A stretch of 14,386 nucleotides of DNA from an uncultured archaeon. Lineage in GTDB: Archaea; Asgardarchaeota; Lokiarchaeia; Sigyniarchaeales; SOKP01. Shown here piece by piece: positions 1,666-14,386 of this stretch. Each line of letters begins with the position of its first letter. Within the stretch, counting starts at the first letter, position 1. Location: the NCBI GenBank assembly GCA_964525635.1, contig CAZGJX010000075.1:1-14386 (forward strand). Direction: 5' to 3'. Position numbers and translations under genes: made by a program. Under the pieces are notes generated by a model. That model was not told the origin of the DNA. It was given only the letters and a program-made list of their open reading frames with translations, and ran no database searches.

Positions 1666-2319
1666 TTATTTTTTTCTGTAAAAATATAGCGTTTTATAGG
1701 AGATTTCCTCTTTTTTTATCAGACCTATTTTACATAGTACTTTAACATATTTTGTCACTGTTTTTAAATGCATATTCAATTGTTCTGAAATACCCGTTTT
1801 AGTAATACCTCCATCAGCATTATTTTTAAGATGTTCTATAATCATTTTACATTTTTCATTTGAAAGATAATATCTTTGAATAGCATCCATAGGATCTAAA
1901 TTCGCATCAAAATATATATCATGATTATCCACTTGAATTTTAGAAATAAAATTAAACATTAATAACATATCTAAGTGCCATTTTACCACATGATTACTAA
2001 TATTCAATTCTTTAACTAAACAATAAAAATAGACTCCGGGATTTTCTTTAATATAATTAAATAGTTTTATCCTATTTGGATGCGTTAAGATATCTTCCTT
2101 AACTAATTTTGATCTTTTAACAATTAATCTTCGTTCTATTAATGATGAGATTATTTTAGCAATCCCTTCTTCATTGATATTAATTTGAGCATTTGTAAAT
2201 CTATTTTTAATATATGGAATGAGATTGGTAATATTTAAATAGCGATTTTTATTCAAATATTCTTGAATCATTTGATAAACTAATTTCTCTTTTTCTTTCT
2301 CCATTAAGGTGTAATTCAT
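1666..2319 (-). CDS. Winged helix-turn-helix transcriptional regulator with three predicted wHTH modules (ArsR/MarR-like, Lokiarchaeia-type)
   Basis: NRIKLFNYIKENPGVYFYCLVKELNISNHVVKWHLDML and GITKTGISEQLNMHLKTVTKYVKVLCKIGLI are wHTH-like, and the N-terminal third is also wHTH-like. GAGTGA lies upstream of the ATG, 41 bp after the GH9 gene stop. Confidence 0.85.
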   Translation of the reverse strand: MNYTLMEKEKEKLVYQMIQEYLNKNRYLNITNLIPYIKNRFTNAQININEEGIAKIISSLIERRLIVKRSKLVKEDILTHPNRIKLFNYIKENPGVYFYCLVKELNISNHVVKWHLDMLLMFNFISKIQVDNHDIYFDANLDPMDAIQRYYLSNEKCKMIIEHLKNNADGGITKTGISEQLNMHLKTVTKYVKVLCKIGLIKKEEISYKTLYFYRKK

Positions 2320-2360
2320 TTTACCAAATCACTCAAAAATATCTTTTTATTATTAGTCGT

Positions 2361-5300
2361 CTAAGAATTTAAATTATCCAACATATGATTGAATATTCTT
2401 TTTCTTTCTTCTGGAGTTAACGAGATCATTTCCTTAATAAATAAAAATTTCTCAGTTTCGTCCTTCCATTCAAGAAGTTCAATTTTTTCAAAAAAATCTT
2501 CTTCAAGTAAAGTTATTTCCATACCTTTTAATTTAGTCACCTTATCGATTATATTATTTTCATTTAATAAATCATTTAATTGAATATCTTTAAAAATATC
2601 ATCAACGGAAACCACTTCAGTTGTTTTTAGTTTCCAATATCTTTTTTCTAAAGGTTTATTTTTTATTTTTACTCTTTTCTTAGATTGAATTTCTTTTATT
2701 TTATTTGGAGTTGTATTTTTTTTATTTAATTTTGATCTTTTCACTTCTGTTAAATATAAAGTCACAACAGAAATTCCAATTAAGCTTAAAATTATAATTA
2801 ATGATATAATAAACAAAGAATCATTAATTTTAGTATCATCATTAAGAGTTTTAGCGCTAACTTCTAATGAAGGCCCACTTGGATTATTATATATATCAAT
2901 AGCTATTATGACATAATAATATGTTGTATCAGGAGTTAAGCCTGTATCGAAATATTGACTTATTGATGTATTTATGATAAAATTAGTGGAATCCGGCATA
3001 AAACCGGGAGTAATACTTCGATAGATTGAATATTTTTCAATATCTGGCTCAATATTATCACTCCAATCAATATAAATACTTGTTGGATTAATTTTTTCAA
3101 TTATAAGTCCTATTGGAGCTAATGGAGGATTAGTATCTTTGGTAGTTGTAGCACTCTCTTCCATTGATGAAACACTTGGATTACCATAAATGTCAATTGC
3201 TATCAATTGATAATAATATGTTGTACTCGGAGTTAATTCTGTATCGAAATACTGGCTTAATGATGTATTTGCGATAAAATTAGTGATGTCTGGAGTAAAA
3301 CTTGGAGTATTACTTCGATAAATTGAATACTTATCAAAATCAGGCTCAATATTGTCATTCCAACTAAGCTTAATATTTGTTGAATCAAGTGTATTAGCTG
3401 TGAGTCCTGTTGGAGCTGCAGGGCTATTTGTGTACATTTGTGGATCCAAACCATATATCCAAATTCCATTGTCATATACAGGAATATATTTATTTGGAAA
3501 TCTTGTACTATTTAAAGATTGAAAAGACCAATCATTTGTAGGATTCCACGCCTCATCTGGTGAAGCATCAGGTAATCCAATTCTAATTTGTGTTTCTTTT
3601 GCACATTCAACTTCACCAGCAGGATACAGTATAGTTCCTTTATAATCAACTTCTACATAATAAATATCATTTTCCAAATGAATTATTTCAGGAATATTAA
3701 TTATTGCTCCCGGCTCTGTCCAGATTGATGTAACTGTAATATCATTAGAAGTATATCCCCATGAATATATTTCGCTTATATTGAAATAATATCTATAAGA
3801 TAATTGGTCTGTTACTCTAGCAGGCCATGTCGCGTGATTTGCGAGATCAACACTAATCTCTGTCCAAGCAGTTCCATCTATAGTAAGCCTAGCATCACTG
3901 TAAATTTCGATAAGACTCATATTTTTAGGTTTAAACCATGAAGGGCCGGGAAAATCATTATGGGGTGTTCCTCCATATAAATCTGTCATTTTAGCTAAAG
4001 CACCTATTAATCCAGAATTATAATCACATGCAATAGATGTCCTCTCAAGAGTAAGTCTATCATCAGTCCAACTATCACTCATATCGGGACCTGACACAAG
4101 AGCACCATATAGAATGTGTCTATTATCGGCGGGTAAATTAGGTAAATTGGCCCAAGATCCATGGGCTGTTTCATGACGTGGATTTTGAGGTGAATTAGGT
4201 CCAAAACCAACAAGATAACTACTGCTTCTTGGATTATCACCAAGAATATATTTTATTTGTTCTTCAGCAAAATTATGATATATAGAAGCCTTTGAAGTGG
4301 TACAATTAGGGCTATCAGCCCATACAAACGCAAGAAAAGCAGCATTTGCAGCATATCTGAGTGATCCTAATGAAGCTAACCAAGCAAGACCTCCTGGAGT
4401 ATAGTCAATTCCCCCACCAGGCATCCACCAATCTAAATTTCTCTCGATTGAGTCTATATAGGTTTGATTAGTTGAGACTCTTGATAATAGAATTTGTGCC
4501 ATATAATGCATATCATTCCAACAATGCGTTGTTTGATATTTTATTTCTGTTTCATACTCCTCAATTGCCCAATTTGCTGCTGCTTGCTCAGATTTATCTA
4601 AATATGTTGTGTTTCCTGTCTTTATATATAATAATACTCCACAAGCTGATAATTCATCCCAAAAGCCATTTTCAGATTCATAATATGCTCCTGCTATTGA
4701 ATTATAAAAACTATCAGATTGAGCAGCCCATGCTAAATTATTTAATTGAATTGCATGGGTTAAGCAAATATCTGCATAAGTAGGATCTGAGTTATTAAAA
4801 ATAATCGAAGCTAAGGTTAAAGCCGCAGCTGTAGCCCCACAAACGGCAGATCCTCCTTGCGACGAAGTAACTCTATAAGAAGAACGACTCATTACTTCCT
4901 CAATTACTTCAGAAGGCCCCCACCAACTAGCATCAGAAACAGGATCACCTACTTGAAAATAAAATTCATTTGGATTAGGATTTGCTTTAATAAAATAGTC
5001 TGTTCCCCATTTAATTGCATCCAATATCTCATCTAGTTGGTCTATATTTTCAAAAACAGAATAATATTCATAAACACTCCACGCTAGTGTAGCTATAGTT
5101 GATGCCATAGGTAATCCAAATTTATTTGATCCACTACCATCATAATATCCTCCTGTAAGATCTAATCCTGAATCAATACCATCATTTAAACAAGAATCTC
5201 CCTTCCATATTACAGGATTATTATCTGTTAGATTGCCTGAACGTTGTTGCATATAGAAATATATCGATTTTTGTAATGCAGCTGCATAATTATCAATAGT

Positions 5301-5477
5301 TTCTTCAGGAGGAGGCCATGAAGCGCTATTAATATTGTTAGAAACTAGTTGGAATTTATAAGTATTATTTGATGAATTAGTTTCTATTTTTAGATTATTA
5401 AAATTAAATATATAATTACAAAATAAAAATAGAATGAGTATAGTACCATATAACTTTATTCTGCTATTTTTTGGCAT
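2361..5477 (-). CDS. Membrane-anchored GH9-like (catalytically degenerate) + CBM3c-like + 2xFN3 + TM + cytoplasmic domain protein; putative carbohydrate sensor
   Basis: N-terminal hydrophobic signal. GH9 scaffold motifs (NYAAALQKSIYFY..QRSG, DLTGGYYD, KFGLPMA, IKWGTDYFIKA, YFQVGD, YTPGGLAWL, GSLRYAANAAFLA, YILGDNPRSSSYLVGFG, GALVSGP, ACDYNSG) at about aa 63-497. CBM3c-like NHATWPARVTDQLSYRYYFNISE...KETQIRIG...WNPTNDWSF...IPVYDNG..IYGLDP. Two FN3 domains, TM at about aa 887-909, then a basic linker and acidic helical tail. Confidence 0.9.
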   Translation of the reverse strand: MPKNSRIKLYGTILILFLFCNYIFNFNNLKIETNSSNNTYKFQLVSNNINSASWPPPEETIDNYAAALQKSIYFYMQQRSGNLTDNNPVIWKGDSCLNDGIDSGLDLTGGYYDGSGSNKFGLPMASTIATLAWSVYEYYSVFENIDQLDEILDAIKWGTDYFIKANPNPNEFYFQVGDPVSDASWWGPSEVIEEVMSRSSYRVTSSQGGSAVCGATAAALTLASIIFNNSDPTYADICLTHAIQLNNLAWAAQSDSFYNSIAGAYYESENGFWDELSACGVLLYIKTGNTTYLDKSEQAAANWAIEEYETEIKYQTTHCWNDMHYMAQILLSRVSTNQTYIDSIERNLDWWMPGGGIDYTPGGLAWLASLGSLRYAANAAFLAFVWADSPNCTTSKASIYHNFAEEQIKYILGDNPRSSSYLVGFGPNSPQNPRHETAHGSWANLPNLPADNRHILYGALVSGPDMSDSWTDDRLTLERTSIACDYNSGLIGALAKMTDLYGGTPHNDFPGPSWFKPKNMSLIEIYSDARLTIDGTAWTEISVDLANHATWPARVTDQLSYRYYFNISEIYSWGYTSNDITVTSIWTEPGAIINIPEIIHLENDIYYVEVDYKGTILYPAGEVECAKETQIRIGLPDASPDEAWNPTNDWSFQSLNSTRFPNKYIPVYDNGIWIYGLDPQMYTNSPAAPTGLTANTLDSTNIKLSWNDNIEPDFDKYSIYRSNTPSFTPDITNFIANTSLSQYFDTELTPSTTYYYQLIAIDIYGNPSVSSMEESATTTKDTNPPLAPIGLIIEKINPTSIYIDWSDNIEPDIEKYSIYRSITPGFMPDSTNFIINTSISQYFDTGLTPDTTYYYVIIAIDIYNNPSGPSLEVSAKTLNDDTKINDSLFIISLIIILSLIGISVVTLYLTEVKRSKLNKKNTTPNKIKEIQSKKRVKIKNKPLEKRYWKLKTTEVVSVDDIFKDIQLNDLLNENNIIDKVTKLKGMEITLLEEDFFEKIELLEWKDETEKFLFIKEMISLTPEERKRIFNHMLDNLNS
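2850..3425 (-). repeat. Tandem FN3-encoding duplication, 297-bp period, inside the GH9-like gene
   Basis: Two ~99-aa units (W.DNIEPD..KYSIYRS.TP.F.PD.TNFI.NTS.SQYFDT.LTP.TTYYY..IAIDIY.NPS). DNA CTGTATCGAAATA recurs at 2942 and 3239. Confidence 0.85.
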
Positions 5478-5573
5478 ATTCCCGTTGCTTATTAATATTT
5501 TTCTTTTCTATCAATAGTTTAAGATTAAAAGCAAAATCAAACCATTCTATTCTATAGTATAATAGATTACATA

Positions 5574-5610
5574 AGTGCTATATAAGATCATATGGTAAAA
5601 GTTTGATGGT
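5574..5610 (-). promoter_or_regulatory. Promoter/operator motif copy 1 (TATA box CTTATATA preceded by ACCA-n10-ACCA) for the GH9-like/wHTH operon
   Basis: Minus strand ACCATCAAACTTTTACCATATGATCTTATATAGCACT, 32/37 identical to 5773-5809, ending 96 bp upstream of the ATG at 5477. Confidence 0.7.
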
Positions 5611-5772
5611 ATCTTTAAATTTGCCCATCCGCTCTATATATTTACCTCCTTACTTCTTATATTCTCTTACTTTCAAAATATATGGTTATAATCATTAAAG
5701 CATATCGTTCCAAAAAGAAATCAATATGAAAATGCTAAATTTCTATTTAAATGCTTTTTTATCAATAAATCA

Positions 5773-5809
5773 ACCATCACAGTTTTACCAGATGATCTTA
5801 AATAGAACT
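5773..5809 (+). promoter_or_regulatory. Promoter/operator motif copy 2 (TATA box CTTAAATA preceded by ACCA-n10-ACCA) for the GH5 gene
   Basis: ACCATCACAGTTTTACCAGATGATCTTAAATAGAACT is the inverted copy of 5574-5610, ending 61 bp upstream of the ATG at 5871. Confidence 0.7.
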
Positions 5810-5870
5810 ATCTGTTTTCTTTTATATAATTTTTACATTTGACATAAAATATGTAATTAGATACAATAAA

Positions 5871-6449
5871 ATGCCAAAAAATAAAAAAGACAAAATAGGA
5901 AATTTTACTTTTTTCTCTTTATTTGATCCTTCTTTTGGATTTTTTGTTCCATCAATGGAAGGATCTATATCTGGTTCTAAAATACAAACATCAGATATCA
6001 CTAAAGATGATTGGTATTATATTGTAGAAAATAGCGTCGCTCCATTATTTGAAGGAGAGTGGGGCGGTCCTGCTAGTGGTGAACTTCTGACGTGGTTGAA
6101 TGCAATAAGAGAATTTAAGCATGATATAAAGCTATATCATACTTTCTGGTGGTTTAATCCTAATTCTGGAGAAACTATTGATTTAGTAAGTGGTGGCTGG
6201 AAAATATTAGATCAAACAAAATACAATATAGTCGAACAATTATTATGGAAAGATAATGCTGGGGGTTATATTTCACATAATTATGAAGATGGACTTAATG
6301 CATATCTAACAAATATTATTGAATTAATAGCTAATTAAAATCCAGCACCGCTTCCTGGAGGAGATGGAGGTGATACTACCCCTCCAACTACTCCAACAGG
6401 AATAAATCCTGATAGTGAAATATATCTAAATTTAAGTAGATTACAATGA
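5871..6449 (+). pseudogene. Internally deleted GH5 (subfamily 1-like) endoglucanase with linker and start of an FN3 domain
   Basis: WYYIVENSVAPLFEGEWGG...WLNAIREF...HTFWWFNPNSGET..LV...D.TKY.....LW matches the C-terminal part of GH5_1 cellulases, including the nucleophile motif GEWGG. The N-terminal barrel with the NEP acid/base is absent. The frame continues after TAA 6336-6338 as NPAPLPGGDGGDTTPPTTPTG (linker plus FN3 start) to TGA 6447-6449. Confidence 0.8.
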
Positions 6450-6556
6450 AAAAGAGAATGATGATTTTTTTATATTAATTGGTTAAAATATACATTTTTC
6501 TTAGTATTTTGAAGTTTTTCAATCAAATATTTATTAAAAAAATAATTAAAATAATA

Positions 6557-8008
6557 ATGTTCTATAAAAAAACTCAAAAAAAAAGCAGAATATTAGTCAC
6601 TATATTCTTTTTATTGGCAATCTCATTCTCATTTGGAGTAATTATCGGTAAAAATGCTATTATTGATAAAGATGAACAGAAAGAAAAAAGAGAGATAAAT
6701 TCTTCAGCTCCAGGAAGGCTTTCTTTCGATGAATCAATTATGGAAAATAAAGTAATAAATGTAGATATAAATCAAACATGGGGAGGAACTGGTGATGATG
6801 TTGGAAACGACATATTTATGGATGATAATGGAAATATATATCTAACAGGAGAGACATGGAGTTATGGTTCTGGTGCTTCTGATGTTTTTGTATTAAAATG
6901 TGATAAGTCTGGAACTATTTTCTGGGAAAGTTATTGGGGAGGCTCTGATATGGAAAAGGGGAATAGTATTACTTTAGATCCTTCTGGAAATATTTATGTA
7001 ACTGGTTATACTTGGAGTTTTAGCAATGGTCAAGCAGATGTATTTCTTCTGAAAATGGATTTAAATGGAAATGTAATATGGTATACAACATGGGGTGGTT
7101 CTCGTGAGGATATTGGTTTTAGTTTAGCCTTAGGAGGTTCTGGAAATATATATCTAACAGGACATACAAAGAGTTATGGAACAACAAATGAAGACATAAT
7201 TCTAATGAAATACGATCCTAATGGAAATTTGTTATGGAATTTAACATATACAATTCCAGATTCAAGCACTGGTAAAGGATATGATATTAAAGTAGATATT
7301 GATGAGAATATCTACATTAGTGGTGGAGGAAGTTATTTTATCCTTAAATTTGATTCAGAAGGGAATTTATTATGGGCTACTGAATGGTCTGGATGGACTA
7401 ACGATATCATTATAGATAATAACAATAACGTTATATATGCGACTGGGGCTACATGGACTTATGGTAATGGTGAGTCAGATGTTTGTATAGCAAAGTTTGA
7501 TTTAGATGGTAGATTATTGTGGGAGTGGACATGGGGAGGACCTGGTATTGAATATACACATGGTATTACAATGGATAATAATGAAAACATATATATAACA
7601 GGAGAAACCTGGAGTTATGGTTCTGGATGGTTTGATATGTTTCTTTTGAAATTTGATTCAGAAGGTAATTTAATTTGGAATTTTGTTTGGGGAAGTGCAC
7701 TTACGGAGAGAGGAAGTAAAATATGTATTGATAGTTGGGGCGATTTATATATTGTTGGTACATTAGAGTGTCTTGGAATACAAAAGAGTGAATTGATGTT
7801 TTTAAAAGTTTCATATTCTGATGGTGATATAAAATTAGGTGATGTAAATGGGGATGGTTATGTAGATATTGTTGATGCAATGCAAGTAGCTCAATATGCT
7901 GCTGGATTTAATATACCTAATTTTAATCCTGACTTAGCGGATGTAAATTATGACGGAAGTATTAATATTGTTGATGCTTTAATGATTGCTGAATACTATA
8001 TAAACTGA
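6557..8008 (+). CDS. Secreted or N-anchored SBBP-repeat beta-propeller protein with C-terminal type I dockerin
   Basis: Probable start MFYKKTQKKSR plus a hydrophobic helix (ORF track starts at 6479). About 7 repeats of WGG..D.G..I..D..GNIY.TG.T.S.G.G..DVF.LK.D..G. Duplicated Ca-binding segments GDVNGDGYVDIVDAMQVAQY and ADVNYDGSINIVDALMIAEYY at 7838-8005. Confidence 0.88.
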   Translation: MFYKKTQKKSRILVTIFFLLAISFSFGVIIGKNAIIDKDEQKEKREINSSAPGRLSFDESIMENKVINVDINQTWGGTGDDVGNDIFMDDNGNIYLTGETWSYGSGASDVFVLKCDKSGTIFWESYWGGSDMEKGNSITLDPSGNIYVTGYTWSFSNGQADVFLLKMDLNGNVIWYTTWGGSREDIGFSLALGGSGNIYLTGHTKSYGTTNEDIILMKYDPNGNLLWNLTYTIPDSSTGKGYDIKVDIDENIYISGGGSYFILKFDSEGNLLWATEWSGWTNDIIIDNNNNVIYATGATWTYGNGESDVCIAKFDLDGRLLWEWTWGGPGIEYTHGITMDNNENIYITGETWSYGSGWFDMFLLKFDSEGNLIWNFVWGSALTERGSKICIDSWGDLYIVGTLECLGIQKSELMFLKVSYSDGDIKLGDVNGDGYVDIVDAMQVAQYAAGFNIPNFNPDLADVNYDGSINIVDALMIAEYYIN

Positions 8009-8017
8009 AGACACAGA

Positions 8018-8052
8018 CTTTTTTTTAATTTATTCTAAACCCCTTTTTTTTT
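8018..8052 (+). terminator. Oligo-T archaeal-type terminator
   Basis: Two long T runs immediately after the TGA at 8008. Confidence 0.45.
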
Positions 8053-8126
8053 AATTATATTAAGTGATAGCTACTTTATATTGATAATCTTAGGATATCA
8101 ATAAAAAATATAATAATAATATTAAG

Positions 8127-9173
8127 TTAATTCATCAGAAATATCATCAAACTCAAATTAAAGTAGAATAATTGATACGAACTAACCATTATTCTTTCGA
8201 TTAGACCCTTGTATTTGCTTTGTGCGAGGATACCCGATACAATAACAAGAATTACAGATAAAATTGCTGAAATAAGTGAATATATAGCAAAACCACTCCA
8301 AGCAGGTACTGACTGTAAACGGAACCAAAGTGCTACCATCCCAATAATAGTTAATATTCCTGATGCAACTACAAGAATTAGATGCATTTTTCCCTTGAAA
8401 GTTATTATTTCACCTCCTTCATCAAGAGGGTAAAAAAAAAGCAACGAGTATTCCTAAAATTGAACTAATTAAAAAGAGAATAGGTCCTAGAATTGACCCT
8501 CCTCCATCAGTTATACCTTCATGTAATCCAAGATAAAATACAAACAATAAAACACTTGAACATATAATAAATGATTGTGCTAACCGTTTGTTAGGGGCTC
8601 CAACAGCAAAAAGCGAACTTATATCGTTTCGAATATGACTATAATCTTTTTGTAGTTTACCGAAAAGAATCCACATAAGAATAAACCCATAGTATCTAAA
8701 AAAATAGACAAATCTGGACACTATAAAAATCCATATATGATTTAGATATAATATTCTTTGGCTATTTATAACACTCTTAATAGAAAATTATCACTATCTT
8801 CTCATTTAAAAACTAGTATGACATATAATAGAATAATGACATTAGGAGCTGATTTAACAATAGAAAAATAATACGTAATTGGATTGAAAATTATAATTTC
8901 TCTGATGATTGGAAGTGATTTGGATTAGAAAATATATTATTGAGGATTTCCCTCGATTGTGGAAAAAGAATCCCGTTTCGGGAAAGAATATGATATTCGC
9001 TTTTCGAGATAGCTATATGTTATTCTCGAGACCGTCCGTTGTCGGTCACTCAGGCATCTATTTAAAGATGTAAAAGAAAAAAAAATTTGTCCAGAAATGT
9101 CCAGATTTTTTACAACGGTATATACAATTGGACTAAACATTCCACACAATGCAAGAATCCTAAAAAGAATTAT
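8127..9173 (-). pseudogene. DUF998-family membrane protein, split by an insertion (8686-9118) and a homopolymer frameshift (A9 at 8432-8440)
   Basis: Deleting 8684-9120 joins RILALCGMFSPIVY in frame to ILMWILFGKLQKDYSHIRNDISSLFAVGAPN. Removing one T of the T9 tract gives VAFFYPLDEGG...GKMHLILV...GLIERI. The YS...ISSL..VGAP, MH and GL.ER motifs fit DUF998. The likely start is ATA at 9173, after a GAGGT RBS. Confidence 0.8.
8686..9118. mobile_element. ~433-bp non-autonomous MITE-like insertion (no transposase), CC...GG termini, subterminal TCTGGACA motifs
   Basis: Interrupts the DUF998-like gene, and excision restores the frame. The ends (C)CCATAGTATCTAAAAAAATAGACAAATCTGGACA and CCGTTGTAAAAAATCTGGACATTTCTGGACA (reverse complement) form an imperfect inverted repeat. 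Flanks are TAAA/TATA (imperfect 4-bp or TA duplication). The right end is also present at 22-54. Confidence 0.72.
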
Positions 9174-9301
9174 AATAACCTCTTTTTCTATTTTTCTATT
9201 GGTTTAATCACATATATAACATTACATTTAGAATATAATTTAAAGTAAAAATATATCTATATTTATATTCTTTTATGTTTTTCACATAATACTGCTGATA
9301 T

Positions 9302-9426
9302 CTTTATACGAGGATGTTAGATATAATTACAAAAATTAATTATGTTGTTACTAAAATAAGTGAATATATAACAAAAACACTCCAAGCAGGTACTGATTGT
9401 AAATGGAATCAAAGCGCTAACATCCC
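9302..9426 (-). pseudogene. Decayed fragment of a second DUF998-like gene
   Basis: Ungapped 125-bp match to 8218-8342 (about 100/125 identical by hand count). The TGG codon of LWF is TGA here. Confidence 0.8.
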
Positions 9427-9480
9427 TTCAATGTATGAAATAAGGAGTACTGAAATGAGAATTATAACTACTACTACATA

Positions 9481-10059
9481 TCATCTTCTTTTATTCCAAT
9501 CAATTCCTTTAATACAAATACTTGTATTAACAGAACCATCCCATTCCACATTAAGATCATATTTTTTAATCGTCTGGAAAATTATATTACCGATTTCAAG
9601 AGCATCCTCATCTGTTCCACTTATGGAATCATAAGATAGATAAAGGGTACCCAATTCACAATCACGTTCAGTATCCTATGAATGATAGAAAGTATAACCA
9701 ATTGGTTTTGAATGCTCCTTAAATATCTTAATTTCATAACCAATTTCAGAATGACCACAATTATTACAACAGGCAAAGTTTTGTCGTGCTACAATACCTT
9801 TTTCCTCTAATTTTGCAAATATATCATCGATTTTATCACAATCAGTGGGATCTTTCCATGTATTTTGCTCTTTATCATGTTGACTGAAGAGTTTATCTAT
9901 TAAACTTTCAATATAAATTGTTTGATCATCTCTCTCATATTCCTCCTCAACCATTTCTACTAAAATTTCAATTATATCTTCTCTAATTTCGAAACCTGCT
10001 TTAACTCTATATTCAATCTGTTCTTGTATATTTTTTTTTATTTCATTAGTATCGACCAT
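9481..10059 (-). pseudogene. DUF6891-like protein with one in-frame TAG (9676-9678)
   Basis: LEEKGIVARQNFACCNNCG...GYTFYHS* then in-frame DTERDCELGTLYLSYDS...ALEIGNNI...LNVEWDGSVNTSICIKGIDWNKRR* to TGA 9481-9483. The TAG sits where FYHxQD would have Gln. Confidence 0.75.
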
Positions 10060-10216
10060 AATATCTCATAACTTTTTGGTATTTTAAATATTTCCTTTTA
10101 AATATAGGAATCTTTATCTATTACCTTTATGTATTAGATTATATTTTTCTAAATAATTATAGAATATATAAATTTTTGAAAATTTAGATTAAAAAAACAA
10201 CGATGTAGTTTATGAA

Positions 10217-10477
10217 ATGGATGCAATTAGTGGTATTCTATTTACTGAAATCTCAGGGAAGGGATCTAGATCTGAAGGATTAAAATAATATATTAAACCT
10301 ATAGATGATTACGCTAATAGATGGGAGAAAATTCTTATAAGAAAAAAAACCCATTTATGGGAAGAAGATCCAGCACTACATAAATTTATTGATAAAAAAG
10401 TCTCAATTTCTGGTGTAATAATTGAAACTAAAAGTACGATTACTATTGACTATGAATCAGTGAAAGAAATAAGATAA
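10217..10477 (+). pseudogene. Small (86-codon) hypothetical beta-rich/OB-fold-like protein with one in-frame TAA (10286-10288); absent from the ORF track
   Basis: MDAISGILFTEISGKGSRSEGLK*YIKPIDDYANRWEKILIRKKTHLWEEDPALHKFIDKKVSISGVIIETKSTITIDYESVKEIR* reads as one protein-like frame across a single stop. Confidence 0.6.
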
Positions 10478-10559
10478 ATCGGGTATTTTTTTCCTAAATT
10501 GGAATTAATTTTAATAAATAGAATAATAATAAAAAAAAAAATTGAGAGTATTAAACGAT

Positions 10560-12905
10560 TCAATATTTTTTAATTTTTTTTTTGTAGACTAGAACGACAG
10601 TGAATATAATAGATATCGATGAAATAGCTAACAGAAGTAACAAATCTGGTCCTGAAATATTATTTATATTTACTCTTATCGTCACTTCAACTTGATCTGT
10701 AATAAAATAACCTCTCCTATCTGTTATATTCATTCTATAAGTGTATTCTCCAAGACCTATCCCATCATCCTCCTCATCATGGAGCACATATCTAATTTTT
10801 CCTCCACTTGACCAAGAGGTTGGCCCTTCAACGATACCTGTTCCTTCAAGTGTAATTGTATAAGTATCTGGATTACGATCAGTTGCTGTCCAAATAAGAG
10901 GTTCAGAAACAAAATTTCGTGTTAAGGTAATATCGCTTGGTTTTAAATTTATTTCCGGAGGTTTAAAATCAGTAATACTCACCTGTATTACACCTAAACC
11001 CATTCCACTACAAGCAACATATGCATAATCTCCACTTATATGTATATCCTTTGCACCAGTACCCGCTTCACGATAAATGGGAGTTCCTGGATTTGTAGGA
11101 TTTGATATATCTATAGCCCAAAGTGCCCATCCAGCTCCAAGATAAGCATAATCTCCACTTATATAAACATCATCAGGAACTTGTTGTGAAGTAATATTTA
11201 CAAAGATTGGAGTTCCTGGATTTATAGGATCAGTGATATCTACAACAACTAGACCAGTATTTAAATCATTAAGATTATAATAAGCTATATAAGCATAATT
11301 TCCACTCACACATATTCCATTCGCTACAATATTTATATCGTAATAAATAGGTGTTCCTGGATTTTTAGGATTTGAAATATCTATTATAGCTAAACCAGCA
11401 TAACTATTAGCAATATATGCATAATCACCACTTATATATATTTTATTTGTATAATCAGTAGTATTACAATATATTGGAGTTCCTGGATTTGTAGGATCTG
11501 AAATATCTATAATAGCTAAACCACAATTTATTCCTTGATAATCATGATATGTAAGATACGCATAATCTCCACTCACATATATTCCTCTTGTTGTTTCATA
11601 TATATTCTGATATATAGGTGTTCCTGGATTTGTAGGATCTGAAATATCTATTATGGCTAATCCTACATCACCATTAGCAATATATGCATAATTTCCACTT
11701 ATATAAATATCATATGCAGTACCCGTAGTATCTCTAAATATAGGTGTCCCTGGATTAGATGGATCTGATATATTAATGATCGCTAAACCTTCCCAATCAT
11801 TAGCTATATACGCATAATCTCCGCTTACATATACTCCTCTTGCTGTGTCGTCGGTGCTTCTATATACATTAGTACCTGTATTTATTGGATATGACACATA
11901 TATAATAGCTAATCCTGCATCATCATTAGCAACATATACATAACTCCCACTTTTAAAACCATCATATGCAATACCATTTGTATCAGTATATTCATGAATA
12001 TCTGGATTTTTCGGATTTGCAATATATATAATAGCTAAACCTGAAGATCCACCTGTAACATATGCATAATCTCCACTTATATAAATTCCCAAAGCATAAC
12101 CAATTGTATCTTCATACATAGGAGCTCCTGGATTTGTAGGATCAGAGATATCTATTATAGCTAAACCAGCATATCCATTAGCAACATATGCATAATCTCC
12201 ACTTATATAAACACCCATAGCCTCACCAATTGTATCTTCATACACAGGAGTTCCTGGATTTGTAGGATCAGAGATATCTACAACAGCTAGACCAGAAGCA
12301 CTATCAGCAATGTATGCATAATCTCCATCTATATAAACATCCATAGCACCACTAATTGTATCCTCATACACAGGAGTTCCTGGATTTGTAGGATCAGAGA
12401 TGTTTATAACAGCTAGACCAGAATCACCATCAGCAATATATGCATAATCTCCACTTATATAAACATCATATGCAAGTCCCGTAGTATCTTCATACACAGG
12501 AGTTCCTGGATCCGTAGGATCAGAGATGTTTATAACAGCTAGACCAGAATCACCATCAGCAACATATGCATAATCTCCACTTATATAAACACTCATAGCA
12601 TCACCAATTGTATCCTCATATACAGGAGTTCCTGGATTTGTAGGATCAGTGATATCTACAACAGCTAGACCAGAAGCACCATCAGCAACATATGCATAAT
12701 CTCCATCTATATAAATACCATAAGAATTACCCTTAGTATCCTGCTCATATGTATCTAATGCATTATTCTTTAATACAGTATTATTATCTATACTTATTGC
12801 ATAATTAGTTGATATTGGAATGAATAAAAAGCATATCATTACTATCAGTGCTGTAAGTATACAAAAAACTCGAGCTTTTAAATTAAGACTATATTTTTTC
12901 TTCAA
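10560..12905 (-). CDS. LVIVD-repeat cell-surface protein with Ig-like stalk and C-terminal TM anchor (Loki-CTERM-like)
   Basis: TTG start after a GTGA RBS, signal peptide, about 14 repeats of GDYAYVADG.SGLAVIDISDPTNP, a D..PP.I Ig-like domain, and an ISGP-hydrophobic-KKKIKKY tail. Confidence 0.9.
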   Translation of the reverse strand: MKKKYSLNLKARVFCILTALIVMICFLFIPISTNYAISIDNNTVLKNNALDTYEQDTKGNSYGIYIDGDYAYVADGASGLAVVDITDPTNPGTPVYEDTIGDAMSVYISGDYAYVADGDSGLAVINISDPTDPGTPVYEDTTGLAYDVYISGDYAYIADGDSGLAVINISDPTNPGTPVYEDTISGAMDVYIDGDYAYIADSASGLAVVDISDPTNPGTPVYEDTIGEAMGVYISGDYAYVANGYAGLAIIDISDPTNPGAPMYEDTIGYALGIYISGDYAYVTGGSSGLAIIYIANPKNPDIHEYTDTNGIAYDGFKSGSYVYVANDDAGLAIIYVSYPINTGTNVYRSTDDTARGVYVSGDYAYIANDWEGLAIINISDPSNPGTPIFRDTTGTAYDIYISGNYAYIANGDVGLAIIDISDPTNPGTPIYQNIYETTRGIYVSGDYAYLTYHDYQGINCGLAIIDISDPTNPGTPIYCNTTDYTNKIYISGDYAYIANSYAGLAIIDISNPKNPGTPIYYDINIVANGICVSGNYAYIAYYNLNDLNTGLVVVDITDPINPGTPIFVNITSQQVPDDVYISGDYAYLGAGWALWAIDISNPTNPGTPIYREAGTGAKDIHISGDYAYVACSGMGLGVIQVSITDFKPPEINLKPSDITLTRNFVSEPLIWTATDRNPDTYTITLEGTGIVEGPTSWSSGGKIRYVLHDEEDDGIGLGEYTYRMNITDRRGYFITDQVEVTIRVNINNISGPDLLLLLAISSISIIFTVVLVYKKKIKKY
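12040..12720. repeat. 126-bp tandem coding repeats (42-aa LVIVD units)
   Basis: TATGCATAATCTCCA occurs at 12061, 12187, 12313, 12439, 12565 and 12691, an exact 126-bp period. Confidence 0.95.
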
Positions 12906-13081: not shown

Positions 13082-14386
13082 TTAAATGATATTAATAAAA
13101 GTTATAATCAAATTCATAGTTCTCTTTTTTTTTTCTCTTAGGAAAATAAAAATTATTATTGAAAATCCAATACATCCAATCAATATGACTGGATGATATC
13201 CCAAAATACTTGGAGCGTTATCATCTCTTTTAAACCAATAATCTTTCAAAATGATTTCAAAATCTAAGGTATGTCTAGAATTTACAGTACCATTATAGTG
13301 ATAATAGGATAAAAGCCCTGTAGATTTATCCCATTTTTCATGAATGCTATAGTTTTCATTCATTGCATGGTATCCAAAAGTTGTTGCATTGTTAATGATT
13401 TCTACTTCTGGGTCCCCAAATATAAATTGACCATGACCCTGATACCATAAAGCTATATCATCCCATGTCCAACTTGCACTAGGTGGGCGAACTTCACGGA
13501 TCCAAAAAGGACCTTCAACTGGAATGCCGGGAATTATTTCAGGATTACCATAATACCAGTTTGGATCTCCATCATGACCATCGGATATAATTGTAACATT
13601 TGACCATGATAAACCATTTGTAGAAGAAACATACATTATTTCTGTATCTGGATAACTACCCCAAAATCCATTTGTTGTTTCCATCCAAACAACATGAATT
13701 CCTCCCGAACTATTGACTGCGATAGAGGGAAAAAAACTATCACCATCATTCCAATATATTCCATTATATCCATCTGAAATAACAGTAGCATTTGACCATC
13801 CCAATCCATATGTGTAATTCGAGTACATAATCTCAAGATCAGTTCCCCAATCACCTTCAGTATAATCCTGCCATACTAAATGAAGATTTTCCAATGAATC
13901 TATAGTAATACCTGGAAAATTACTACTCTTAGTATTCCAATATATACCATTAAGGCCATCTGAAATAACAGACGCATTTGACCATCCTAAACCATTGGTA
14001 TAATTAGTATACAATATTTCTTTATCATCGGTTAAATGTGTCCAAATCCCTTCTGAATTATCATCCCAAACAACATGAATAACATTTGAATTGTCAACAA
14101 CAATAGCAGGATTTAAACTATCACCATCATTCCAATGAGTTATATCATCTGAAATAACTGTTGCATTTGACCATCCCACTCCTTCTGTATAGGATGAATA
14201 CATTATTTCTGTATCATTTCCCCAGATGCCCTCTGTAGTATCCTCCCAGACAACGTGAATATAATTTAAATTATCAACAGCGATAGCAGGATTTTTACTA
14301 ATACCATCATTCCAATATACTCCATTAAAACCATCTGAAATAACTGTTGCATTTGACCATCCCACTCCTTCTGTATAGGATGAATA
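13082..14386 (-). CDS. Repeat-rich (BNR/beta-propeller-like) surface glycoprotein with C-terminal TM anchor (Loki-CTERM-like); 5'-partial
   Basis: The frame is open to the window end. ~62-aa repeats WSNATVISDG...WN.G.S..P.IAVD....IHVVW.D.T.G.WG.D.EIMY, many N-x-S/T sequons, and a PSILGY-hydrophobic-REKKKR tail. Confidence 0.85.
   Translation of the reverse strand, partial: YSSYTEGVGWSNATVISDGFNGVYWNDGISKNPAIAVDNLNYIHVVWEDTTEGIWGNDTEIMYSSYTEGVGWSNATVISDDITHWNDGDSLNPAIVVDNSNVIHVVWDDNSEGIWTHLTDDKEILYTNYTNGLGWSNASVISDGLNGIYWNTKSSNFPGITIDSLENLHLVWQDYTEGDWGTDLEIMYSNYTYGLGWSNATVISDGYNGIYWNDGDSFFPSIAVNSSGGIHVVWMETTNGFWGSYPDTEIMYVSSTNGLSWSNVTIISDGHDGDPNWYYGNPEIIPGIPVEGPFWIREVRPPSASWTWDDIALWYQGHGQFIFGDPEVEIINNATTFGYHAMNENYSIHEKWDKSTGLLSYYHYNGTVNSRHTLDFEIILKDYWFKRDDNAPSILGYHPVILIGCIGFSIIIFIFLREKKKRTMNLIITFINII
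14146..14386. repeat. Perfect 55-bp direct repeat (14146-14200 = 14332-14386), 186-bp period
   Basis: CATCTGAAATAACTGTTGCATTTGACCATCCCACTCCTTCTGTATAGGATGAATA occurs twice; the second copy runs to the window end. Confidence 0.9.

Follow-up and report, generated by a model that had tools for sequence, protein, structure and literature searches.

A candidate kinase-free surface-to-gene system in Lokiarchaeia pairing a pseudo-cellulase receptor with a triple winged-helix regulator

How might an archaeon relay events at its surface to its genes? To our knowledge, archaea have no sigma factors, and how Asgard archaea sense their outside and respond in gene expression is largely unknown. The question is raised by the first 14,386 nucleotides of contig C75 (CAZGJX010000075.1; this whole analysed stretch is called the window here), from the 4.45-Mb genome (26.8% GC) of an uncultured lokiarchaeon, in which the gene of a membrane protein with a glycoside hydrolase family 9 (GH9) domain is followed by a regulator gene. 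An earlier sequence-only reading had proposed that the two form a cellulose-sensing system. We consider it somewhat probable that they belong to a two-protein, kinase-free surface-to-gene system of Lokiarchaeia, consisting of a membrane anti-activator and an activator. The contig DNA is also present in salt-marsh metagenomes, with no RNA run among the listed runs that carry it; close homologues are labelled Candidatus Lokiarchaeota, and look-alikes of the regulator Promethearchaeota.

The two genes and their parts are arranged as follows (positions in the window, strand in brackets; aa, amino acids):

2361..5477 (-): receptor-like type I membrane protein of 1038 aa, from its open reading frame (ORF), profile matches and hydropathy
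3996..5288 (-): GH9 domain, aa 64-494 (E 5e-125; PF00759 at full length, 419 bits)
3438..3920 (-): CBM3 module, aa 536-610, directly C-terminal of GH9, the CBM3c position of GH9-CBM3c endoglucanases
2838..3422 (-): two FN3 repeats (stalk), from a repeat family and a profile match
2757..2819 (-): one strong transmembrane (TM) helix, aa ~887-907, from hydropathy
2364..2582 (-): conserved cytoplasmic tail domain, aa 966-1038, a short extended segment and three helices, acidic, the predicted regulator binder
1666..2319 (-): triple winged-helix regulator of 217 aa, starting 41 bp past the receptor stop
2104-2307 (-): regulator D1, a family-specific docking unit
1897-2103 (-): regulator D2, an HVO_0163-like winged helix-turn-helix (wHTH)
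1675-1896 (-): regulator D3, an HTH_24-like wHTH

From its N terminus, the receptor has a hydrophobic leader, GH9, CBM3, two FN3 repeats, the TM helix, a Lys-rich linker and the conserved tail, with 131 aa beyond the TM helix; 12 N-glycosylation sequons lie N-terminal of that helix and one C-terminal of it. The sequence-only reading had described a single-pass protein of this build with a cytoplasmic tail of ~130 aa, a wHTH regulator gene 41 bp downstream on the same strand, and no kinase or receiver domain, and all three descriptions held. Profile searches detected no histidine kinase or receiver domain in either protein, which distinguishes the pair from a two-component system.

The tail domain (~75 aa) connects this locus to a large family. 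It had no sequence match in Pfam, NCBIfam or the PDB and no usable match in the Atlas, and its best fold match (Z 5.2, root-mean-square deviation 1.8 over 49 residues) was a weak one to a generic three-helix arrangement; judged by its sequence, it is probably a new domain. The source genome contains 15 copies in 14 ORFs, and public data contain 322 clusters at 50% identity. In a survey of 400 Asgard genomes, in which related genomes are not independent and the thresholds for tail and regulator differ, the tail was matched in 136 genomes; within the genome's own family 118 of 134 genomes had it, and beyond the class hardly any did. Among the 150 best tail representatives, a TM helix precedes the tail in 115 and the tail is C-terminal in 145. 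The ectodomains above it are unrelated to one another (beta-helix, propellers, Kelch, LamG, PKD and GH9), a diversity that the sequence-only reading had envisaged. Tails are acidic in 46 of 54 cases, and the regulator units are basic.

The tail and the regulator are closely coupled. Of the 65 tail matches found in long ORFs, where a tandem tail counts as two, 51 have a regulator at most 1 kb downstream; for 8 more the regulator lies upstream within the cluster, giving 59 of 65. The same adjacency was found in all 17 held-out loci, which come from genomes outside the alignments, and in other families of the order and class, as the sequence-only reading had expected of Asgard genomes. Across the 400 genomes, 123 had both parts, 13 the tail only, 9 the regulator only and 255 neither (agreement in 378). 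Four genes of one genome fuse ectodomain, TM helix, tail and regulator into one chain, and a TM-regulator fusion without a tail also exists. In the source locus the two proteins are split, 41 bp apart and out of frame, and a read-through fusion was rejected on account of gaps in all three frames (14, 21, 23).

The regulator was modelled as three helical or winged units (pLDDT 96). D1 occurs in 11 proteins of the genome, of which 10 are encoded beside a tail gene and one is fused to TM helices; relatives that lack D1 have no tail neighbour. D2 and D3 resemble HVO_0163-like double-wHTH proteins (Pfam PF24266 and PF13412; PDB 5duk), from which the regulator differs by its additional N-terminal D1 and by a PF24266 score of 28, below the cut-off of 31. 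No sigma domain was detected by Pfam, NCBIfam or the structure model. Short D1-D2 regulators are unclear as a conserved form and may reflect decay, and a search for longer fused regulators found none, which is weak evidence.

Modelled together, tail and regulator scored 0.79, compared with 0.18 for the best control; 58 of 80 solved complexes attain the 0.79 mark, as do 2 of 110 mismatched pairs, and these counts are only rough with the alignments used. The runs shared at least 93% of contacts, with a partner pLDDT of at least 75. In the model, D1 residues 65-68 pair with the tail, which also packs against helix 108-121, where the nearly invariant tail residue Phe1013 contacts the invariant regulator residue Trp114. 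By wHTH topology this helix would be the recognition helix of D2, covered by the tail, while D3 is left free. The modelling thus agrees with the interaction proposed in the sequence-only reading, and we judge that the tail very probably binds the regulator.

We then asked what the outer domain of this receptor could do. Comparison with Cel9G and 125 active homologues showed that the catalytic base Asp is replaced by Gly116 (codon 5130-5132) and the catalytic acid Glu by Ser481 (codon 4035-4037), as the claim of an ectodomain without catalytic residues had implied; the first Asp of the DAGD motif is kept (aa 113). Cleft positions His183, Trp316, Asp321, Trp370, His434, Arg436 and Tyr477 are also replaced, and the fold core is kept. 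The receptor shares its domain pair with GH9-CBM3c endoglucanases such as Cel9G (PDB 1g87, E 1e-162) and E4 (PDB 1js4, E 1e-149), and differs from them in the replaced base, acid and several cleft residues and in having a TM helix and cytoplasmic tail instead of a dockerin. To go by these residues, hydrolysis by the GH9 mechanism is excluded for this domain. Nor is it certain that cellulose is still bound, because the cleft has lost more than the catalytic pair, and CBM3c modules alone bind crystalline cellulose poorly.

Assembly error is not supported as the cause of the dead codons, or of a deletion in the neighbouring GH5 gene described below: the dead codons, the GH5 deletion junction and the GH5 stop have identical letters in contigs of four other runs (possibly one sampling campaign). 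Nine dead GH9s from four genomes of one Lokiarchaeia genus form a single clade within the active lokiarchaeal GH9s (Shimodaira-Hasegawa-like approximate likelihood-ratio test 99, in a quick tree that included the catalytic columns), and their frames are open in all four genomes. Every complete dead GH9 carries the TM helix and tail, and no active GH9 does. The dead GH9 is a kept lineage.

The DNA upstream of the receptor contains the following elements:

5574..5610 (-): motif copy of the receptor-regulator operon, two half-sites 11 bp apart followed by a TATA-like octamer at 5578-5585
5773..5809 (+): second motif copy, before the GH5 remnant, with a TATA-like octamer at 5798-5805
5871..6449 (+): GH5 pseudogene remnant with an internal deletion (junction near 6005-6020), TAA at 6336-6338, and a decayed linker and FN3 start

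Identical at 32 of 37 bases, the two motif copies form the longest inverted repeat of the window. Their core is TTCA, seven bases, CCA and then a TATA box at a fixed distance, with a non-palindromic pair of half-sites. With a matrix built by iteration from these two copies, 31 sites scored above 21 bits in the genome, and column-shuffled matrices reached at most 20.2 bits. A motif shared by two TATA boxes, as the sequence-only reading had it, is therefore real in its repeat and its TATA-like octamers and is not private to this locus, being found at about 30 promoters. Strong sites were present in 20 of 2776 upstream regions, so that a general core promoter is unlikely, and an N-terminal hydrophobic leader was predicted for 16 of these 20 genes, compared with 469 of 2776 overall (17%). 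They include both complete dead-GH9 receptors, an intact GH5, dockerin proteins, C14 and C25 peptidases, LamG and propeller proteins, a small GTPase and, with weaker sites, cohesin scaffold genes; lectin-like genes have the motif as well.

Outside the genus, the matrix trained on the source genome exceeded 11 bits at 13 of 37 receptor promoters and 4 of 43 neighbours (p 6e-5, inflated by kinship; background 3.1% of the genome's upstream regions). Because receptor promoters of other genera outscore their neighbours, the motif is linked to the receptor-regulator family more than to cellulose. A merely co-duplicated promoter is an insufficient explanation, since unrelated genes and receptor operons of other genera have the motif. 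A pair of tandem wHTH units could well be accommodated by the two similar half-sites with their 11-bp spacing, and the regulator probably binds the motif.

How would such a pair work? In the mechanism that we favour, the acidic tail would hold the triple-wHTH regulator via D1 and cover the D2 recognition helix, keeping the protein off DNA. A ligand on the outer domain would free the regulator, either by conformational change or by receptor proteolysis; the freed regulator would bind the two half-sites, one helical turn apart and directly before a weak transcription factor B recognition element (BRE) and the TATA box, and would switch on its own operon together with a set of secreted and surface protein genes, in the way that TFB-RF1 of Pyrococcus furiosus activates from a site beside a weak BRE (PMC5937170). 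We think it fairly probable that the regulator acts as an activator, and fairly probable too that the outer domain controls it. Given a retired GH9-CBM3 cellulase as the outer domain, a plant or other beta-linked glycan is the most likely ligand at the source locus, and cellulose or a cello-oligomer is a tentative candidate. Of the cellulose sensing first proposed, the origin of the outer domain in GH9-CBM3 thus stands; with the cleft remodelled, cellulose need not be the ligand. The wider idea of a third transmembrane signalling class in Lokiarchaeia, neither two-component nor sigma/anti-sigma, appears doubtful as a whole: a modular switch of receptor tail and triple wHTH whose outer domains would have been exchanged in the hundreds, one of them a pseudo-cellulase that would sense plant polysaccharide and run a surface programme including cohesin-dockerin parts, with the factor released by receptor cleavage.

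Several observations weigh against the favoured mechanism. Mean conservation of interface residues is no higher than that of others (0.54 vs 0.52), and in the predicted interface this regulator has Lys68-Arg69 where the family has Glu-Gly; because of this substitution and the pseudogene neighbour, the present copy may be starting to decay. In the receptor GH9, 16 of 76 conserved polar or aromatic positions are altered, with substitutes that differ between paralogs, and one dead-GH9 paralog is accompanied by a truncated regulator in three genomes and by no regulator in a fourth. About 11 paralogous regulators face about 30 motif sites, which makes the assignment of regulators to sites ambiguous. 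Most GH5 and GH9 genes of the genome lack the motif, and it is absent between a divergent active GH5/GH9 pair in two sister genomes. The regulon of carbohydrate-active enzymes put forward by the sequence-only reading was dropped for the former reason and because the promoters that do have the motif belong to varied secreted proteins, peptidase, propeller and lectin-like genes among them. No ligand, cleavage site, release route or conserved juxtamembrane cleavage module was found; M50 and rhomboid genes are present in the genome, as in 14 of 14 control genomes, and no SPP-family match was detected in it.

Other readings must be weighed against the same evidence. The receptor could be an ordinary anchored cellulase with an unrelated neighbour, given that GH9-CBM3-FN3 is a normal enzyme layout and that it shares 47-60% identity with active enzymes. 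This is extremely improbable when base and acid are both gone, with the D/D/E catalytic set present in 106 of 108 database homologues, and when tail and regulator are coupled and even fused. The fusions, with and without a tail, would fit with a split transmembrane transcription regulator, its tail serving as a permanent tether or an allosteric activator for a regulator that acts at the membrane like ToxR or CadC and is switched by ligand-driven clustering. The free D3 in the model and the frequency of one-component transmembrane regulators in archaea (PMC10269533) point the same way, but a tail lying on the D2 recognition helix suits inhibition better than a tethered active protein, and we regard this reading as unlikely.

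Feedback without any outside sensing would make the dead GH9 an adhesin or structural surface protein whose tail soaks up the activator, each surface protein thereby holding down its own synthesis. A remodelled cleft, many adhesin-like ectodomains, motif targets that are surface and secreted proteins generally (as the leader counts show) and the absence of a recognizable cleavage module would all be in keeping with this. A counting device would have no need of many paralogs with different outer domains, however, and the loss of catalysis in the tailed GH9s alone would go unexplained, which makes the reading improbable. The sign could also be reversed, with the regulator as a repressor over the BRE that ligand-bound receptor pulls off the DNA, the logic of Mlc and PtsG in Escherichia coli. 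A few bases lie between the end of the second half-site and the TATA box, where this half-site could overlap the BRE, and such sequestration fits the complex model too. Archaeal activators, however, use sites at a constant spacing upstream of a weak BRE (PMC5937170), and the fixed spacing upstream of a TATA box with a poor BRE follows that activator pattern; repression is accordingly a very unlikely reading.

Variants of the family were seen elsewhere. About 24 of the 150 tail proteins (P0128, P0144, P0154 and others) have at least three CxxC motifs, zinc-ribbon-like, between TM helix and tail. Two large genera have a two-TM member of ~266 aa, in which the tail is followed by a weak ubiquitin-like domain (22.7 bits, below the cut-off) and the regulator lies upstream:

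L018:1198-1992 (-): two-TM tail and ubiquitin-like member

Stand-alone tail ORFs of 87-95 aa (L051:2031-2309, L054:8739-9002, L056:250-537), one with a strong motif copy upstream, are probably remnants; their role as soluble inhibitors is doubtful, with 18 non-synonymous and 3 synonymous codon changes in an orthologous pair. A distant receptor-regulator pair lies next to dnaK-dnaJ-like genes (names taken from sequence starts) in three single-contig genomes of a sister family (loci L308, L309, L310, L311). A dead GH9 running off contig C222 (L062) and an FN3-TM-tail gene at the start of contig C8 (L051) show 94% identity where they overlap in the FN3 repeats, and the two may be parts of a single gene. 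In three genomes a 185-aa Ras-family small GTPase is encoded immediately upstream of a dead-GH9 receptor paralog, by a gene that has a strong motif copy:

L052:5168-5725 (-), L048:1453-2010 and L300:743-1300: Ras-family small GTPase gene

The divergent gene, taken for a GH5 cellulase in the sequence-only reading, proved to be a deletion pseudogene. Compared with an intact 949-aa GH5 paralog on contig C47, it matches aa 32-57 at its start and resumes at aa 332, so that ~289 codons are missing, including the acid/base (NEP) motif at aa 209 of the paralog; an in-frame TAA and frame decay follow. The deletion apparently runs from one to the other of a pair of similar short motifs (aa 47 and aa 336 of the paralog). 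Two sister genomes have an intact GH5 gene and an active GH9 gene in divergent orientation, possibly the ancestral arrangement. Further along the window lie a secreted SBBP beta-propeller protein with a C-terminal dockerin (6479-8008, +), a decayed stretch (8050-10500) with a split DUF998 gene, a partial duplicate (8218-8342, 9302-9426) and a DUF6891 gene broken by a stop, an anchored LVIVD-repeat protein (10560-12905, -) and a repeat-rich anchored protein (13082-14386, -), whose gene is interrupted by an N gap just past the window. Genome-wide profile matches comprised 7 GH9, 11 GH5, 25 dockerin and 8 cohesin domains. On contigs C10 and C110 (L054, L060), genes for membrane-anchored cohesin proteins cluster with those for GH9-dockerin and GH5-dockerin proteins and tail receptors. 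The cohesin/dockerin gene set looks like an archaeal cellulosome-like system; no paper on one of this kind was found in the literature searched.

How does the pair compare with known systems? SigI/RsgI pairs of Clostridium (Acetivibrio) thermocellum are biomass sensors (PMC10328401, PMC6056542). Like RsgI, the receptor is a single-pass protein whose outer carbohydrate module varies (CBM3b, PA14, CBM42 or GH10 in RsgI; here GH9-CBM3, and LamG, beta-helix or propellers in paralogs). The two systems also share a small conserved domain in the cytoplasm for binding the transcription factor encoded alongside, many paralogous pairs and an autoregulated operon; here the binding is modelled and the autoregulation predicted. 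The partner here, in contrast, is a triple wHTH and not a sigma-70-family factor, and the binding domain is C-terminal in a type I topology with the sensor N-terminal, whereas that of RsgI is N-terminal. No sequence or fold link was found, the RsgI-type periplasmic domain is absent, outer domains are mostly not CAZy modules, and the targets are not mainly cellulases. SigI/RsgI release proceeds by autoproteolysis plus intramembrane proteolysis, for which no site was identified in the receptor. By analogy, the system would work like RsgI/SigI with unrelated parts, without being a member.

In Pyrococcus furiosus, a membrane protein (PF1089) and the regulator TFB-RF1 (PF1088) likewise share an operon, with the regulator site just upstream of its own weak BRE/TATA (PMC5937170); here the site is predicted from the motif position. 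PF1089, however, has four TM helices and no assigned function, and binding of the regulator to it is not reported (PMC5937170); the TFB-RF1 site is a 13-bp palindrome, compared with a non-palindromic half-site pair here, so that the comparison is one of layout. Transmembrane transcription regulators of the ToxR and CadC type (PMC10269533) resemble the four fused relatives, which have the DNA-binding domain and TM helix in one chain, and differ from the source locus and most others, which are split and joined by a dedicated docking pair; a survey of such regulators has no mention of Asgard or Loki (PMC10269533). No description of a tail-receptor/triple-wHTH system was found in the literature searched, outside which most subscription papers fall, in agreement with the sequence-only reading. 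The system would be a known kind of logic built from undescribed parts. Small soluble fragments would suffice to test this widespread two-part candidate, whose interface, DNA site and target genes are all predicted. Its dead-GH9 branch plainly shows an enzyme reused as an outer domain without catalysis, in a salt-marsh archaeon whose genome is rich in cellulolytic genes.

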